DNA of 61,106 nucleotides, filler included, from Basidiobolus ranarum (lineage: Eukaryota): the NCBI GenBank assembly GCA_040143965.1. It is 5 parts of 5 records of this genome, joined end to end, with 100 filler letters (N's around TTAATTAATTAA, not from the genome) between each part and the next. Parts side by side here need not be neighbours in the genome. Positions count along the whole stretch, not along the records: positions 24,523 to 36,656 come from JASJQH010007439.1; 4 more parts are not named here. One strand, given 5' to 3'. This document shows positions 26,533-36,756 of this stretch, piece by piece (the first letter of the stretch is position 1; each line of letters starts with the position of its first letter). Under the pieces are notes generated by a model. It did not search any database, was not told the origin of the DNA, and saw only the letters and a list, made by a program, of their open reading frames with translations. A program made the position numbers and the translations under genes.

Positions 26533-28137
26533 TTACTGTTGGAAGCTGAAACCACCTTGTGGCATGGATACATCTGATTGGAAAGCAAATGCACCAGTGT
26601 TGGCATCAACTTCAGGAGCAAGACCGGTATCTTCATCCTCTTCTTCACCAAAGTATTTATCAATAATTCCGTAGGCCTTTTGATAGATCTGAATGTTGTC
26701 GTGGATTTGAAGATTGTGAATTTTCTCCATACCACCGGCTTCTTCGACAAAGAGAGCATATTGGTTCTCTCCATTGATTTCTTTATCCATCTCACCGACC
26801 TTGAGAATGTTCTCAATACCGTCTAAAGCAACTTGAATGATTTTGTTATCCATGCATGTCAAGAGATCGCACAAGGGCTTGATGCATCCTGCAGAAACAA
26901 GATATTTAACTTGTTCAGGTCTGGCAAGACCACCAGATGTAGCATTGGATATTGCCCAACAAGCCTCTTTCTTGGTTTTGAAATCAGCGACTTCAAGAAC
27001 ATGGACAAGAGGAGGGATAAGGTTGGCATCAAGTACAAATTGAATTTGATCTGGGGTACCAGCGGTGATGTTGGAAATAGTCCAGCAAGCCTCTTTTCTG
27101 ATACCATCCTTGGGGCTAGAAAGAAGGCTTAGGAGAGCAGCCAAACAACCAGAGTTGATCATGATTTGAGTTTGTTGATCATCTCCAGTGACAATGTTAC
27201 CAACTGAACGCAAAGCGGGTGTTTGAACGGTGGTAGAGGGATGCATCAACAATTCAATGAGACGACGGCAAACACCGGATTCAATTACAGCTTGAATCTT
27301 TTCGTTGGATCCATCAGACATGTAGGAAATAGCCCAGCAAGCATCACCAAGAACCTCATCATCATGAGAGTACAAAAGTTTGTTGAGGGTAGGAAGAGCT
27401 GGAGCAATAAGGGACCATTCAGGCTGAGGATTCTTACCACGGCAGAAGTTAGACAAAGTCCAGGTAGCGTTACGTACCATAGAGATTTTGTTGTTTTCAT
27501 TCAAAAGAGTAAGCAAGTTGGGAAGACCACCACATTGCAAAACAAAATCACGACAACGAGCTGAATCACCAGCAATATTTCCAAGAGCCCAGACAGCTTG
27601 CTCCTTAACATCGGAAACGTGACTGTTGAGTAATTCAACAAAAATTGGGACAGCACCGCTCTCAATAACGACTTGAGTTTGGTGAGAAGAACCGGAAGCA
27701 ATGTTGGTAAGAGCCCAAGCAGATTCGAATTGAAGTAGGGAATGAGGAGAACGCAAAAATTCAACGAATCTGCTTACAACTCCACAGGCAATTACCTCTT
27801 CAATAGGAGGATTGGTTTCTTTAGAAAGAAGTTTACGGAATTTAGTACAAGCTTGAAGGGCGACTTCAACGTTGTCGGAATAAAGGTCTTGGACCATCCC
27901 GGGAAGTTGCTCCTCCAATTGAGCAGCGACAGCTGAAGCCATCTTATCCTCGTCTTCACTATCGGACATCTCACCTTCAGGGATGAACATATTTCTCTTC
28001 TTTGCTAGAGACTCTTCACGCTTCTGCTTACGAATTTCAACTTGAGCCTCTTCACGTCTGCGTCTAAGCTCGTCGGCCTTAAACATGGCCTTAGACTTGT
28101 AGGCATTACGTCTGTGTTCGGGAACTCTGGATTCCAT
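26533..28137 (-). CDS. SRP1: Importin subunit alpha (karyopherin alpha), intronless
   Basis: IBB domain ([24 protein letters not shown]) and ARM repeats ([40 protein letters not shown]). Confidence 0.97.
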
Positions 28138-28966
28138 TGTGTATATTGTTTATAGACGGAGAGAAATATGGAAAAAGGTAAATAGATACAGAGGAGTAAA
28201 GCAACAAATTTAAGGTGAGGGGGTTTTAATAAAGAAAAAAATCGATCTACTCCCTGATGATGTATCCTCCACTATCATTTTACTATCTAAGAAAAAGGGC
28301 TCCATCTTACATCCCTCTGGGGGGTCTAAAATCTTACTGAGTACTTCCAATATCCATAGAAACTGAATGAAAGCGACAAAATAGGGTTCGTCGAGCAGAG
28401 AAAAAGGGTACATTAAGAGGTACCCATTATTTGTTTTGACCTGATGAAAATTTTCATGTTTGTTTATTGTTTTCTCTAAATTTTTCTGTTTTTCGCCTAG
28501 GGAGTACGAAAAGACCAACGGTTCCCATATGAGGAAATGTAAATAACAGATTGTCCACAAACCATCCCCTGTATTGAGTTGTTGAGTTATGTTAGCATAT
28601 TCCTAGTCACTTTCCAGTGTTAAAGCTTTAGAGCTTTAAAGGAACAGTCTATCGGCTTTCAATGGACTTCTTTCAGCAAATGCTTGATTGGCCAATATGT
28701 GGGAACGTCATCTGTATTTAGTGCCATGATATCAGCAATTATTGAAAATCATCGAGAACTCAAGCAAACCAATAAATAAATATAAATACCGGTAATTTTC
28801 CAACTGGAGTGTTGTCACATATTGTTAGCCTTTTTTATACTTTAACTTTTGGTCCTATTTGGGTAATCAACTCTGATCAAAACATTTTTATGAATCAAAA
28901 TAAACATCCCATTAGCTGAACACGGACAATTCATTTGAACTGGCCTTTAAGCGTGAAAGCCTCAAA

Positions 28967-31955
28967 ATGGAGGAAAAACGTCCAAGACAGAATATTGCTG
29001 AAATTCGGGTATAATATCTTTTGAAATTCATAAAATGCTGGTTGGACGAATGATTGACTCGCTCTTCGTGTTCTTTAGAGACTTCAAAAACTACGTCGAG
29101 AGCAACAAAAGAAAGAGAATAAATCCAACGATATTCAAAATTCGCCATATCAAAAGCCCATAAATAATATAAATGTCCCAAGGAAAGTAGAGAAAGTACA
29201 AGTTCAGAACTTAGAGACTGCATCCAACAAAGAACTGAGTACCGGGGTTCGAGCATTTCAAACGACTTTTGAAAGAACCAGGGGTAAGGCAGTGGAGATA
29301 AATCCATTTGCTTCTTCAACTCAACAGGTTGACCACACATCGCAAAACCCATTCACTATATTTGGAAAACTTATTTCCGAAAAGAATGGGGAAACCACCA
29401 TCGTTCAGACTAGCGATGCTCAGTCTGAGAAGGCAATGGAGGTAGTGAAGAGTGTGGGTATTACGATTTTAAATGTGCAGCGTTCGAAGTAGCAATACTA
29501 ATTAGTTGTACCCTTCATCTTAGTCGGAAAAACAAACACACTCTCTCCCTACACATCTTACACCTTTAGTGGTTCAGCGACATACTACAGCGAAATCAAA
29601 TAATTCTTTCCTCGAAGACATACACGAATCAAGTCACTTCAAAAGCAGTGACGAATCTGATGGGCATAGTGAAGCATCATTATCAGATTATTCGGATGGA
29701 CCTAGTGACGTTGAAGATGGCGGCGCGTATATGAGGAGAAAACAACAATTCATGCAAAGCAATCACAAATACGAAATCAATGATGGTAAATAGACGTTTG
29801 CTGCTTATTTAAAGGTTACTGATTGACACAATTGATTTCATTGCTGTCTAGACTCTAGGATCCTAAAGATTCCTACAAACTATATGGTATTACATTAAGT
29901 ATATGCCAACTTGGAAGTTCTTCAACTCACATTTCTGGGATTTAGAGCGCTACTGCAGGGGCGGACTTGCAGGACGTCAAGAATGGTATGTCGATAGCCA
30001 CCAATTACTTTGTCGTCGATGCTTTTGCTGACTTTACTCTATATTATATTGCAGTGGAATCTGATGATAATCGTAGTGTTCTGTTTAATCTGTTGGAGCG
30101 ACGTAGTGTACGAACATTTGTCACTTTTGATAAGTACCAGGTGACTAATATATATATATTTGAATTACTAGTCTCATTTAGAGAGTCGAAATGATGATCA
30201 GGATGTAAATATGGAAGGTGCTGTCTATCTTCAGAGTTGGATTGTTTTATTCTCTTTGCTCTAACCTACAGCTTTAGACACATTTGTTAATACCGAAAGT
30301 CCATCGAGTGAAGCCATTAGTACGGATGTAAGACTAGGGAAGTTTATAGCATAATGTGATTCTGCTTATTAACCTTCCTTCTTCTATATATCAACTCAGA
30401 ATGCGAATGACACAGGTACGTTCAATTAGTGTGTATGATGCTTACTAGCCGCTTCTAACTTCAGCTGTTGTTGCCAGGTATCCCCATTCCTCAAAAGGTA
30501 TTTCGACTCAAACTAACCCCTAGTGAAGCTGTGACTTGACTGATCCTAACTTTACGTTCAGCCCAGACAAGGAAGTCCGATGGCGCCTTTCGACTGGACA
30601 ATCAAAGTTCGCCTAACTTTCACATCAGCCAAGTCATTCCAATGGTGCGATAGTCTGGTTTCGGCTCACCAAACGGAGGCACTGAATTCTTTTGTAAAAT
30701 CACACGAGCCAGTGCATGTTAATGTTAGGTTTTTTGTTATAATATCCTACCAAGATATCCAGCTGACCAAACTCTGTAGAGTCAATTGAAGAAGCATTTA
30801 CACAGTTGGGTCTACCCAACAGCAGAAAACCCCAAGCCTTACACCGATTATTTAATGAAAGCAATGTCCAAAACTAGCTCACTGTTGGCTGAAGAGAAGC
30901 AAACCATTGCAGAGTTCAAGGGCTCCATTGAAGAATGGTAATCGTTGTCCAATTATTCTTATGTCTGTGATGGTGACTAATGACCTTTTTGTATGGCAGG
31001 AAAGATTCGTTTCGCTCTTTATACTATTCATTGAGAAATGGCGTTTGTGACTATTTCTATTACATCAATGACCAATTCTCGGTTCTTTTCAAATCGAAGA
31101 ATATTGCCCACAGCGGCGAATTCGAAGCCATCATGTGTAAATCTACTCACGGCTTACGCAAAGTTCTTCAGGATGAAGGCATCGAATTTGAGATCCCTCT
31201 CGATAGACTCTCGTCGGATGTTCTTTATCGAGGGATGGATGATCCTATCTCTGATGAGGAGAGACAAGCCATCTTGAAAGAGCTTGAGGCGTTAGAGATG
31301 TTAAATCCTGGTTCCACGTAGGTTATCACCTCTATGTTAATTACCTCAGAACTTCCATTTATATTTTTGTCAGTTCCCAGAAAAACGTCCAATTCAATTG
31401 GGATAACTCTTATCGATCTGCCTTGTACTTTGCCGGCCATCCTAATGTTCATGGTTTATTCGACTTCTTATTAAATTGGAAGGACAGTCGCCTTGAGCAT
31501 CATGTCAAAAGTCGACCTCGTCTTATATCTCCGGATCCCTTTCTGAATGCTGCAGTAAAGAGTGCCAAAGTAGGTTTCAAAGAAGTTACGGAATGAAGGT
31601 CTTTTAGTAATCTATTGTTTCAAACTAGATCGCCAAAAATGGGAAAGTCCATCGAGCTGCTATTGACGCTGCCAATGGTCAAGAGTTCTTACAAACGTTT
31701 TACAAGATCGAATTAATTGGGTTATTTCTTCCCACTTCGGTTCATCTTTTAATGGAATTATTCAAAGTAACCCAAGAGAGCGCATTCGAGGTCAACTTGA
31801 AGACCGATAATAGAACTCTAGGTCTAAACATTCCAATTCCTTTCTCTTCTACTCAAAATACTTCACGTTTATCGCATGTATTGCGTGAATCCAGAGTAAA
31901 AGTTGGCTCACTCAAAACGATAACTTGTACACCCGAATCTCACTTTTTGTATTAA
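28967..31955 (+). CDS. DONSON: DONSON (downstream neighbor of SON) homologue, multi-exon
   Basis: Exon 1 28967-29008, exon 2 from 29079. Conserved blocks in the expected order: PFDWTIKVRLTFTSAKSFQW, HSWVYP, WKDSFRSLYYSLRNGVCDYFY...FSVLF, STHGLRKVLQDEGIEFEIP, VHGLFDFLLN, PRLISPDPF, YKIELIGLFLP. Confidence 0.85.
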
Positions 31956-32443
31956 TGACATTTGAAGGATGACTTTGCGAAATAAAGCATAAGCCTTCAC
32001 TATCCTAACCCTAACATTGGTCCACCCAAAATGGCTAAAACGGCTATGGCCAATTTCATCGTATACTAATCTATTATAATACCATTAGCAGGGTTTTTGT
32101 CTGATCTAGAATGGGTATGTGGCCATTATATTACCTAACCTTAATATAAATGATGGGAACAAAGCTAGATGAATTTGTTTTCACACTTCAAAACAATCAA
32201 ATCAATTCTGCGAGACAGCTATATAGAATATCCATAACAAATCGGAGACTACAATTTTCTTATTTATTACTGTGTTGAACACTCCATACGTTGTTGCGTC
32301 TTGTTTCTGGTAGCTCGGCCTAAACTTATCTCGCCTTCAACGTCCCCTTTGTTCCTTTCATTGCTTACCAATAGTCTTTAATTTCCTCATCAGGCTCACT
32401 CTTTTTATCCGTCCATTCATTTTCTCATTACTCAGCCTCTCCA

Positions 32444-33672
32444 ATGTCCGAAAATTATACCAAAATCGAAAAGGTCGGTGAAGGAGCCTACGGAGTTGTT
32501 TATAAAGCAAAAGACAATCGCACTGGCCGCATTGTTGCCATGAAGAAAGTGCGCCTGGAATCTGAAGATGAGGGTGTACCTACTACAGCTATTCGAGAGA
32601 TTTCTGTATTGAAAGAGCTGAATCATATCAATGTTGTAGGGTAAGTAGAGTTTCAGCCTGAGCTCCTCCTCTCATTGGCATGATATGATTTTTATTCTGA
32701 TATCAAATACTGACTATTCTCTAGTCTTTTGGATATTATTCATAGTGACGGGAAACTGTATCTGGTTTTTGAGTTTTTGGATTTAGACCTCAAGCGGTAT
32801 ATGGATAAAGCTGGTACACTGGATCCAATGCAAGTCAAAGTATGTTCTCCTCGTTTATATGATCAGTGTATGTTTATATGATCAGTGCTTTCAAGGTAAA
32901 ATCAACTTACTTTGCGGTCTGTTAGAGTTACATATACCAGCTGTGTCGAGGAATGGCATATTGCCATGCACGTCGTATTCTACACCGTGATCTGAAGCCA
33001 CACAATCTACTAGTTGATCGTGAAGGCATTTTAAAGCTGGCCGACTTTGGGCTGGCACGTGCGTTCGGTGTTCCTATGCGTAACTATACTCATGAGGTCA
33101 GTCTCGATTTATTGGACAGCAATGGTAGACATAGATCCTTAATGCCAACTTAATAGGTCGTTACGTTGTGGTATCGTGCCCCCGAGATTCTTCTTGGTTC
33201 TCGCCAGTATTCCACAGGAGTAGATATGTGGAGTGTTGGCTGCATTTTCGCTGAAATGGCACTTGGGAAGCCATTATTTCCTGGAGACTCTGAGATTGAT
33301 GAATTGTTTCATATCTTTAGGTTAGTTCAATAGACATTGTGGCGCATACATCGACCCTTACTAACAAACTCTTAGATTATTGGGAACACCTAAAGATTCG
33401 ATATGGCCTGGAGTCGAGAGTCTACCCGATTACAAGGGCACTTTTCCCAACTGGTGTCCCCAGAACCTAGCGCAAGTTATCCCTGCACTAGATGCCGATG
33501 GCATTGATTTGTTGAAGGTTCGCTTGATCCTATCTCATCATACTACCGTTGAAATATTACTAACTCTGCTTCTACCTAGAAAATGCTTGTGTTTGACCCG
33601 GTCTACCGAATTTCTGCGAAGAAAGCCCTACAACATCCTTACTTTTTGGATTTAGATCGTTCCCAATTCTAA
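32444..33672 (+). CDS. CDK1/Cdc2-like cyclin-dependent kinase, non-canonical motifs, 6 exons
   Basis: [82 protein letters not shown], ending [12 protein letters not shown]. Confidence 0.92.
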
Positions 33673-34738: not shown

Positions 34739-35378
34739 TTAATGGTATGAATTGAACCCACTCATTGAGTGTAAACATCACTTATTGACCCTACGTAAAC
34801 ACCTCTCACTGCTGAAACAGGGGCAATGGCATAAGCATAATCACGTGACACGGCTGTCAGTGTTTACGTAATTAACAATAGCATCCTATACACCTCATCA
34901 CAAGTAAATAACCTCAACTTGGAGAAGAATCTGATTGGACATCCCCTGGGTACTGTATTCCGGGAGATTGAACGAAATAAATAAATATATAAAAAATAAA
35001 TATACCAGAGAGGGAAAAAATAAGGAAAAAATGACAATTGATGTTTTCCCAGACAACCTTGCTTGGTCGCAAGAAATTCCATTATTGGGATATAGACCAA
35101 ACCAACATACTTCAACTTACCAAAGGTAGCCTATATACTAATCGAGTAACTAGTATTTTGAAAATGGCAAAAATGTGTGAGGAGATTCCACCAAATGTGT
35201 TATTAATGGAAGTAGTTCCTTAGATGGTGATAATCACAGAAAAGGGGTTTGGCTTATCTCTGCAATGAACCAATCACGTTACAGATTGCTGATTGGTGGA
35301 ATCCACGTTTGCATCATCACCTTTTAGTTATAAAAAGAAGTAAAATGCAGTGGGAATTGCCATTCACCTTTGCTTAAA

Positions 35379-36191
35379 ATGTCTAATAACATCTGCCGTT
35401 TCGAAGATCAAACTCACACCATCCCTGAAGGCGGTGACCACCATGGTCATAGTCACGGTCATGAACATTCTGGTGCTGCCGATCACGGCCACACTCACGA
35501 ACAAATGGACAGTCCAGGTAACTTCCATGAACGTGAAGCTCCTGTTTTCAACCGTAGAGACTGGAGCGAACGTGGTTTCACTGTTGGTATCGGTGGTCCC
35601 GTTGGATCCGGCAAGACTGCTTTAATGCTTTCCCTCTGCAGAGCTCTCCGTGAGAACTATAACATTGCCTGTGTTACCAACGATATTTTCACCAGAGAAG
35701 ATACTGAGTTTTTGGTTCGCAATGAAGCTCTTCCTAAGGAACGTATTCGTGCCATTGAAACTGGTGGTTGCCCTCACGCTGCCATTCGTGAGGATGTCTC
35801 TGCCAACATGAACGCCTTGGAGGAATTGCAAGCTCAATTTAACTGTGAACTCTTGTTGATCGAGTCCGGTGGTGATAACCTCGCCGCTAACTATTCTCGT
35901 GAATTAGCTGATTGTATCATCTACGTCATTGATGTTGCTGGTGGTGACAAGGTCCCTAGAAAGGGTGGACCAGGTATTACCCAATCTGATCTCTTGGTTA
36001 TCAACAAGACCGATCTTGCTCCTATCGTCGGTGCTGACTTGGACGTCATGGCCAGAGATGCTGAGAAGATGCGTCAAGGTGGACCTACTATCTTTGCCCA
36101 AGTCAAGAATGGACCAGGCATGAAGGAAATCATTGAATATATTTTGCAATCTTGGGAACAAAGTGGAGCCAAGGCCGCTAGCAAGCAGTAA
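35379..36191 (+). CDS. ureG: Urease accessory GTPase UreG
   Basis: His-rich N-terminus, [51 protein letters not shown]. Confidence 0.97.
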
Positions 36192-36406: not shown

Positions 36407-36656
36407 TCATTTTGTTTCTTTGTCAGTATGCTTTTGTGCTTCTTTAGCAGCTAAGTTAGCTTTTTGTTGTGGAGTAATGTTCTCAGACTTGGCTTGCTCA
36501 ACTCGTGGCTTGACTTCCTCTGCAACTTGCTGAGCTCTGATCTTAGCCGCTTCAGCAACCTCTCCACTATACTCCTTCACTTGTTCACTTTTGCTCTTGA
36601 CTCCTTCACTTACTGATTTGGCAGTGCCAGCAACTTCTGATTGAACTTTACCAGCT
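36407..36656 (-). CDS. C-terminal fragment of an LEA-like/amphipathic-helix protein, cut by contig end
   Basis: Open frame AGKVQSEVAGTAKSVSEGVKSKSEQVKEYSGEVAEAAKIRAQQVAEEVKPRVEQAK...KETK*, rich in A/E/K/V. Not listed in the ORF track. Confidence 0.55.
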
Positions 36657-36756
36657 NNNNNNNNNNNNNNNNNNNNNNNNNNNNNNNNNNNNNNNNNNNN
36701 TTAATTAATTAANNNNNNNNNNNNNNNNNNNNNNNNNNNNNNNNNNNNNNNNNNNN
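36657..36756. other. Artificial contig spacer
   Basis: N44-TTAATTAATTAA-N44. Confidence 0.97.

Follow-up and report, generated by a model that had tools for sequence, protein, structure and literature searches.

The window analysed here, a 61,106-nucleotide stretch joined from five records of the fungus Basidiobolus ranarum (phylum Basidiobolomycota), carries on its plus strand (28967..31955) a gene of 15 exons encoding a 699-residue orthologue of DONSON. The role of the DONSON family, which includes DNSN-1 of C. elegans and humpty dumpty of Drosophila, as a core factor of replicative helicase assembly in animals has been known only since 2023. The B. ranarum gene is an uncharacterised addition to this known family, and its membership is secure, because the sequence matches of its exons and of its B. 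meristosporus orthologue are joined by matches of fold. Very probably, it is a vertically inherited orthologue that acts in helicase assembly as it does in animals; we infer this role by analogy with the animal proteins. The N-terminal half of the product is long and disordered, and a globular DONSON domain follows at the C-terminal end.

Two proteins were retrieved with the 106-residue translation of the largest conserved stretch of the gene (31001-31318). The first is the GenBank protein of the same gene (P0001, "hypothetical protein K7432_009295 [Basidiobolus ranarum]", 526 residues), which is 100% identical to the query; the second is a 689-residue protein of B. meristosporus (P0002), 86% identical over the query and 66% identical, end to end, to the 699-residue product. 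The B. meristosporus protein matches Xenopus DONSON (PDB chain 8q6o_R, E 1.3e-23) over ~350 residues (304-651 versus 153-531), and this is its sole match among all PDB sequences. Taken alone, exons 13 and 11 of the window also reach Xenopus DONSON (E 1.9e-10 and 1.8e-5). For exon 15 the best match is still DONSON (E 0.46), and exon 14 has no match among PDB sequences. A precomputed family tag, PF27662.1, is carried by the GenBank protein and by 29/29 relatives from the homologue search, and plant proteins named at their source "protein downstream neighbor of Son" are among its carriers. Scanning a local copy of Pfam with hmmscan gave no family for the GenBank protein and only sub-threshold hits for the B. 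meristosporus protein and 2/8 exon pieces; this null says nothing against membership, because the PF27662.1 model is absent from that copy.

The fold leads to the same family. An AlphaFold2 model of the B. meristosporus protein, built from a 14-row alignment, is disordered at residues 26-305 and forms a mostly confident domain at 306-689. Its top Foldseek match is Xenopus DONSON (8q6o_L, E 9.8e-22, template modelling (TM) score 0.69 on the target), and C. elegans DNSN-1 is also matched (8ouw_F and 8ouw_G, E 1.3e-17 and 5.9e-15). The initial annotation had proposed a fungal DONSON homologue; sequence, predicted fold, shared tag and the tree described below all bear the proposal out. The Foldseek match that follows the DONSON and DNSN-1 chains is human RPP40, a subunit of RNase P/MRP (6ahv, E 2.5e-5, TM score 0.41 on the target), and the model suggests that DONSON and Rpp40 may have a distant fold relationship.

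Homologues are widespread in early-diverging fungi. A profile of ten fungal homologues, searched against 1.84 billion representatives, returned 1079 proteins at E ≤ 1e-3, 610 at ≤ 1e-10 and 163 at ≤ 1e-30. Names were sought for 30 of 150 listed matches among these 1079, and 29 proved to be named or source-labelled, one being without a name. Early-diverging fungi account for 20/29: chytrids such as Spizellomyces, Powellomyces, Batrachochytrium, Synchytrium and Chytriomyces, together with Hyaloraphidium, Calcarisporiella, Bifiguratus, Jimgerdemannia and Dispira. The other 9/29 are holozoans, namely five animals, Capsaspora, Chromosphaera and two choanoflagellates. Other homologue searches added Rhizophlyctis, Polychytrium, Mortierella, Podila, Gamsiella, Neocallimastix, an Orpinomyces-labelled entry and Dimargaris, the last being the sole addition among the five matches of a search with a fungal alignment, in which 8000 candidates competed for places. 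At least 29 fungal genus-level labels thus carry a homologue, always annotated as "hypothetical" or "uncharacterized", and we take none of these genera to belong to Dikarya.

Candidate partner-binding elements and proposed role

Three short elements of the protein can be set against contacts described for animal DONSON. The first is a basic motif, KRPRQNIAEIRRLQKLRR (residues 5-22, 28979..29102), which is split by intron 1. Exon 1 (28967..29008, donor GTATAA) encodes MEEKRPRQNIAEIR, and the peptide resumes in exon 2 with RLQKLRR, so that the N-terminal peptide given in the initial annotation is read across the intron. In Xenopus DONSON, the first 24 residues are reported to be needed for Sld5/GINS binding, with Tyr8 being critical, and KRPRQNIAEIRRLQKLRR is a candidate Sld5/GINS-binding helix. 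In pattern and in position it agrees with the fungal KRPxDLAALRQKQLQKR, the plant KRKTPSELRGEQLKRK, the Capsaspora PAQLKRQQVERRR and the animal WKKPSDVMKMRRKKK. In the B. meristosporus model the motif is a helix (residues 10-24) with a predicted local distance difference test score (pLDDT) of ~85. Of 148 N-complete proteins, 57 have a loose pattern of this motif within their first 70 residues; the frequency is 1.2% among shuffles and 0.7% among other windows of 70 residues. The pattern was written after the data had been seen, and the count is therefore a description and not a test. The initial annotation had noted no clear PGY-type motif, in agreement with the absence of PGY from the first 60 residues of the B. 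ranarum protein and of all 174 proteins examined; the label "PGY" itself was not found in the DONSON literature checked for it. In the DONSONs of Mortierellomycotina (P0005, P0007-P0009, P0011-P0013, P0033) the KRP...LR..Q helix is lacking, and the N-terminus has been remodelled in a way specific to this lineage: it opens with MIPxKRxSPF, after which come SPF or PPF and one NPF.

The second element is a pair of Asn-Pro-Phe (NPF) motifs encoded by exon 2 (29079..29453), which also holds the remainder of the basic helix. They lie where the initial annotation had placed them: motif 1 (EINPFAS, residues 89-91) at 29301..29309 and motif 2 (SQNPFTI, residues 104-106), 15 residues after the first, at 29346..29354. 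Both are candidate ligands of Dpb2/POLE2. In human DONSON, an NPF peptide (71-88) is reported to bind POLE2 directly with a dissociation constant of ~13-16 µM, and the contact to be visible in cryo-electron microscopy density, Y513, E520 and S522 being the human residues named for the pocket that takes up the NPF; in Xenopus, a disordered peptide adjoining the Sld5-binding N-terminus binds POLE2. Among named rows, at least one NPF is present in 31/31 fungi, 8/9 holozoans and 0/6 plants. An NPF-NPF pair 10-40 residues apart is found in 16/31 fungi, and an NPF paired with an N/D/S-PF in 25/31; neither pair type occurs in the holozoans (0/9) or the plants (0/6). NPF upstream of the core is found in 0/10 plant-named rows. 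By these sequence counts the paired NPF / xPF marks out the fungal DONSONs, and no mention of paired NPF in them was found in the literature searched.

The third element is an acidic helix, DEERQAILKELEALEML (31253..31303), in a loop that matches the D3 loop of Xenopus DONSON, and it is a candidate contact of the Mcm3 AAA+ domain. The Xenopus D3-loop helix (D374, E377, W381) is reported to bind the Mcm3 ATPase domain, and Ser437 to touch the Mcm3 A-domain. The corresponding helix occupies residues 494-509 in the B. meristosporus model, where E496 and E499 align with D374 and E377. Two further Xenopus residues, Trp234 and Met463, are described in the dimer interface, and Asn430 as important for TopBP1; Met463 aligns with Val576 of the B. 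meristosporus protein, a conservative change.

By analogy with these animal contacts, B. ranarum DONSON would act as a dimeric scaffold at replication origins, helping to turn loaded Mcm2-7 into the Cdc45-MCM-GINS (CMG) helicase. The N-terminal basic helix KRPRQNIAEIRRLQKLRR would hold GINS through Sld5, the two NPF motifs would tether Pol epsilon via its non-catalytic subunit Dpb2/POLE2, and the acidic loop helix would dock on the Mcm3 ATPase domain. Early-branching fungi would then have kept an ancestral eukaryotic DONSON step that was lost in Dikarya, both model yeasts included.

Several points weigh against this proposal or the models beneath it. The aromatic anchor found upstream of the helix (Tyr8 in Xenopus; W/F/Y in animals) has no Basidiobolus counterpart, and only four residues precede KRP in the B. 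ranarum protein. By our count on the alignment with the B. meristosporus protein, the dimer-interface Trp234 of Xenopus corresponds to Asn373, the TopBP1-related Asn430 to Asp545 and the Mcm3 A-domain contact Ser437 to Asp552, while W381 of the D3 loop falls in an unaligned insert. The structural model represents the protein of the sister species and not that of B. ranarum, and with 383/689 residues scoring below 50 it reaches a mean pLDDT of 53.8. Finally, the support for the two shortest exons, 9 and 10, comes from the GenBank model and from their collinearity with the B. meristosporus protein.

These differences would also fit a true DONSON-family protein that no longer takes part in CMG assembly in fungi. 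Such a protein might be retained solely for fork protection, for a checkpoint or for another job, with Sld2-Dpb11 delivering GINS as it does in yeast; a fork-protection or checkpoint role is the one first ascribed to human DONSON. The unconserved Xenopus contact residues (Trp234, Asn430, Ser437) and the missing aromatic Sld5 anchor speak for this possibility. So do Dikarya, which are reported to live without DONSON, both model yeasts included, so that fungi can evolve a DONSON-free route. Against it, the three short linear elements linked to CMG assembly in animals, namely the N-terminal helix, the NPF and the acidic loop helix, keep their places and their sequence of appearance throughout the named fungal lineages, which is hard to explain unless the partners are the same. 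We regard a change of function as unlikely, and assembly of the CMG helicase as the preferred role.

A more specific and tentative idea, which we hold to be rather less probable than its converse, is that fungal DONSONs form a distinct variant. In these, an NPF-type pair 12-25 residues apart would replace the single animal NPF, giving bivalent or higher-avidity capture of Pol epsilon via Dpb2, or else binding both Dpb2 and a second NPF reader. The helix K-R-x-P-x-x-hydrophobic-A/S-E/D-hydrophobic-R-x-x-Q-x-K/R-K/R would be the ancestral, kingdom-wide Sld5-binding element, and the animal aromatic "anchor" a later addition. Human DONSON is reported to have one NPF, and a synthetic triple DONSON NPF to bind POLE/POLE2 more strongly; a paired fungal NPF could, for this reason, raise avidity. 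If fungal DONSONs are such a variant, early-diverging fungi would be a simple setting in which to ask what allowed Dikarya to dispense with DONSON.

Gene model and the truncated database entry

The gene reads on the plus strand from the ATG at 28967 to the TAA at 31953-31955, the exact span and strand of the initial annotation. The start reads ATG GAG GAA AAA CGT CCA and is followed by many short open stretches. The 15 exons are separated by 14 GT-AG introns of 56-72 nucleotides, which agrees with the earlier description of the gene as intron-rich, and together they form a 2100-nucleotide coding sequence whose frame of 699 residues contains no internal stop. Every donor starts with GT, and a U12-type box (GTATCC/ATATCC) is present in 0/14 of the introns (29009-31628). 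A tblastn search with the B. meristosporus orthologue gave eight collinear pieces on the plus strand of the window; at least seven DONSON-like blocks in the right order had been claimed, and this number is reached, with exons 11 and 13 matching Xenopus DONSON on their own. Exons 1-13 were obtained by threading the GenBank protein through the DNA with GT-AG introns. Exons 14 and 15 were added by means of a GTAGGT donor at 31318 with an AG at 31372-31373, and of a second GTAGGT donor at 31570 with an AG at 31627-31628.

After the two N-terminal exons described above, exon 3 (29524..29785) encodes a disordered linker in which an acidic stretch, ESSHFKSSDESDGHSEASLSDYSDGPSDVEDGG (~29626-29724), is rich in Ser and Asp. 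Conservation of this stretch between B. ranarum and B. meristosporus is good, and its sequence resembles a group of sites for acidophilic kinases. Exon 4 (29852..29886) follows the GenBank protein and is collinear with that of B. meristosporus; it is succeeded by exons 5 (29946..29985), 6 (30055..30107), 7 (30172..30217) and 8 (30278..30327). Exons 9 (30400..30415, 16 nucleotides) and 10 (30478..30497, 20 nucleotides) encode a poorly conserved linker, exon 9 being the least certain part of the model and exon 10 also less certain than the rest. The globular DONSON domain begins in exon 11 (30562..30723) with PFDWTIKVRLTFTS; this exon matches Xenopus residues 154-191. Exon 12 (30780..30937) is placed by tblastn collinearity and threading. 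Exon 13 (31000..31317) holds the most conserved core, W-KDSFRSLYYSLRNGVCDYFYY, and the loop helix, and matches Xenopus residues 271-335. The two last exons are without GenBank counterpart: exon 14 (31374..31569) encodes VHGLFDFLLNWK and ends in PFLNAAVKSAK, with 88% identity to residues 517-581 of the B. meristosporus protein, and exon 15 (31629..31955), which includes the stop codon TAA, is 74% identical to its residues 581-689.

The GenBank entry K7432_009295 is cut to 526 residues because intron 13 was read through to a TAG at 31319..31321. This triplet lies inside the intron and is not the true stop. The entry consequently omits exons 14-15 (within 31318-31955), which encode 173 conserved residues at the C-terminal end of the DONSON domain. 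Its end at the TAG is what would speak for a decaying or mis-assembled gene, genuinely truncated at this point. Such a truncation is highly improbable, as the donor at 31318 and the acceptor at 31372-31373 bring the frame back, and exons 14 and 15 encode VHGLFDFLLNWK and the C-terminal blocks, which hold invariant columns of the family and keep the identities given above. A pseudogene was rejected, the frame being open throughout with 14 canonical introns. A minus-strand open reading frame (28912-29352) overlapping exons 1-2 has no Pfam family and is taken as chance.

Relatives and descent

A tree was inferred from 44 named rows and 614 columns by an IQ-TREE quick search, with plants as the outgroup and with support given by the Shimodaira-Hasegawa-like approximate likelihood ratio test (SH-aLRT) only, without bootstraps. 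All 29 fungal rows come together in a single clade (SH-aLRT 98) next to the holozoans, whose nine rows form one group (78), and the plants are left outside (100). The window protein pairs with that of B. meristosporus (100). Because ten long branches were flagged, the branching order among the fungi is unreliable. The fungal clade beside the holozoans fits vertical inheritance, which had been anticipated from the many introns, and argues against transfer. Dimargaris xerosporica possesses two DONSON-family proteins (P0030 and P0031, 768 and 718 residues), encoded on separate contigs and almost the same at the N-terminus; either a recent duplication or two haplotypes may account for them.

The least probable reading, acquisition from an animal or plant or a contaminated contig, found no support and was considered only because both model yeasts are without the gene; it is rejected, as the tree places the window protein within the fungal clade, apart from animals and plants, its 14 introns are short and follow the local pattern, its GC content (0.38-0.40) is the same as that of the flanks, and its neighbours are ordinary eukaryotic genes. 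These neighbours are a single-exon importin-alpha on the minus strand (26533-28149; IBB plus Arm repeats, E 2.4e-94), a protein kinase on the plus strand (32375-33655), the first exon of which looks CDK-like, and a UreG/CobW-type GTPase with a His-rich N-terminus, also on the plus strand (35334-36191). Farther along, a run of N at ~36655-36700 appears as X in the translation of a minus-strand open reading frame (36407-36700) and is probably an assembly gap.

Both model yeasts lack DONSON, which is why all mechanistic work on it comes from animals. An intact, motif-complete copy in Basidiobolus, together with homologues in at least 29 named genera of early-diverging fungi, places the loss on the lineage that led to Dikarya, and fungi with DONSON are places in which the ancestral step could be studied. 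The gain is limited, since the fungal distribution has already been stated in a 2024 preprint, in one sentence and only as a database remark; the initial annotation's caveat about novelty applies. Xia et al. is the only relevant paper found with both "DONSON" and "dikarya", and a literature search combining DONSON with early fungal group names or the last eukaryotic common ancestor returned nothing relevant. What is new here is the corrected gene model, the fungal paired-NPF signature, the cross-kingdom N-terminal motif and a tree consistent with vertical descent.

Comparison with known systems

DONSON of Xenopus laevis and human (PDB 8q6o, 8q6p) is a CMG-assembly factor mutated in microcephalic dwarfism. 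The Basidiobolus protein shares with it the succession of a basic N-terminal helix, an NPF in a disordered region and a globular domain with an acidic loop helix, and the globular domains agree in sequence (E 1.3e-23) as well as in predicted fold. The NPFAS core of motif 1 is identical to that of Xenopus RRNPFAS (residues 65-71). The Basidiobolus protein differs by having two NPFs, 15 residues apart, instead of the single human one, by a longer disordered region (~300 residues versus ~150), by the lack of an aromatic residue before the N-terminal helix and, on the B. meristosporus alignment, by not keeping Trp234, Asn430 and Ser437 of Xenopus. With C. elegans DNSN-1 (PDB 8ouw) it shares the same fold, according to the B. 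meristosporus model, with a sequence identity of only 14-16% in the structural alignment. Published work describes DNSN-1 as dimeric and as placing GINS on Mcm2-7 by way of Sld5 and Mcm3.

The plant "protein downstream neighbor of Son" homologues are 26-33% identical to the Basidiobolus protein in the globular domain. Their N-terminal motif is of the same class (KRKTPSELRGEQLKRK versus KRPRQNIAEIRRLQKLRR) and their loop helix is similar (LVELSEIEKHNLG versus ILRELEALEKQNPG). Unlike them, Basidiobolus carries an NPF upstream of the core, which none of the ten plant-named rows does. The homologues of other early-diverging fungi, such as Spizellomyces, Rhizophlyctis, Mortierella, Calcarisporiella and Dimargaris, fall in the same clade as the Basidiobolus protein and have both the N-terminal motif and the NPF / xPF pair in common with it. 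Their identity to Basidiobolus is only 21-40%. Mortierellomycotina differ in that the first NPF has become SPF and the N-terminus MIPxKRxSPF.

Yeast Sld2, the functional analogue of DONSON in Dikarya, belongs to an unrelated protein family without resemblance to it. It is reported to bring GINS and Pol epsilon to Dpb11 and origins, a job that DONSON and TopBP1 do in animals. The initial annotation had set DONSON against Sld2 as two routes; the absence of DONSON from yeast stands, but the contrast needs softening because the two are not alternatives: animals use both DONSON and SLD-2/RECQL4, the latter, as reported, at helicase activation.

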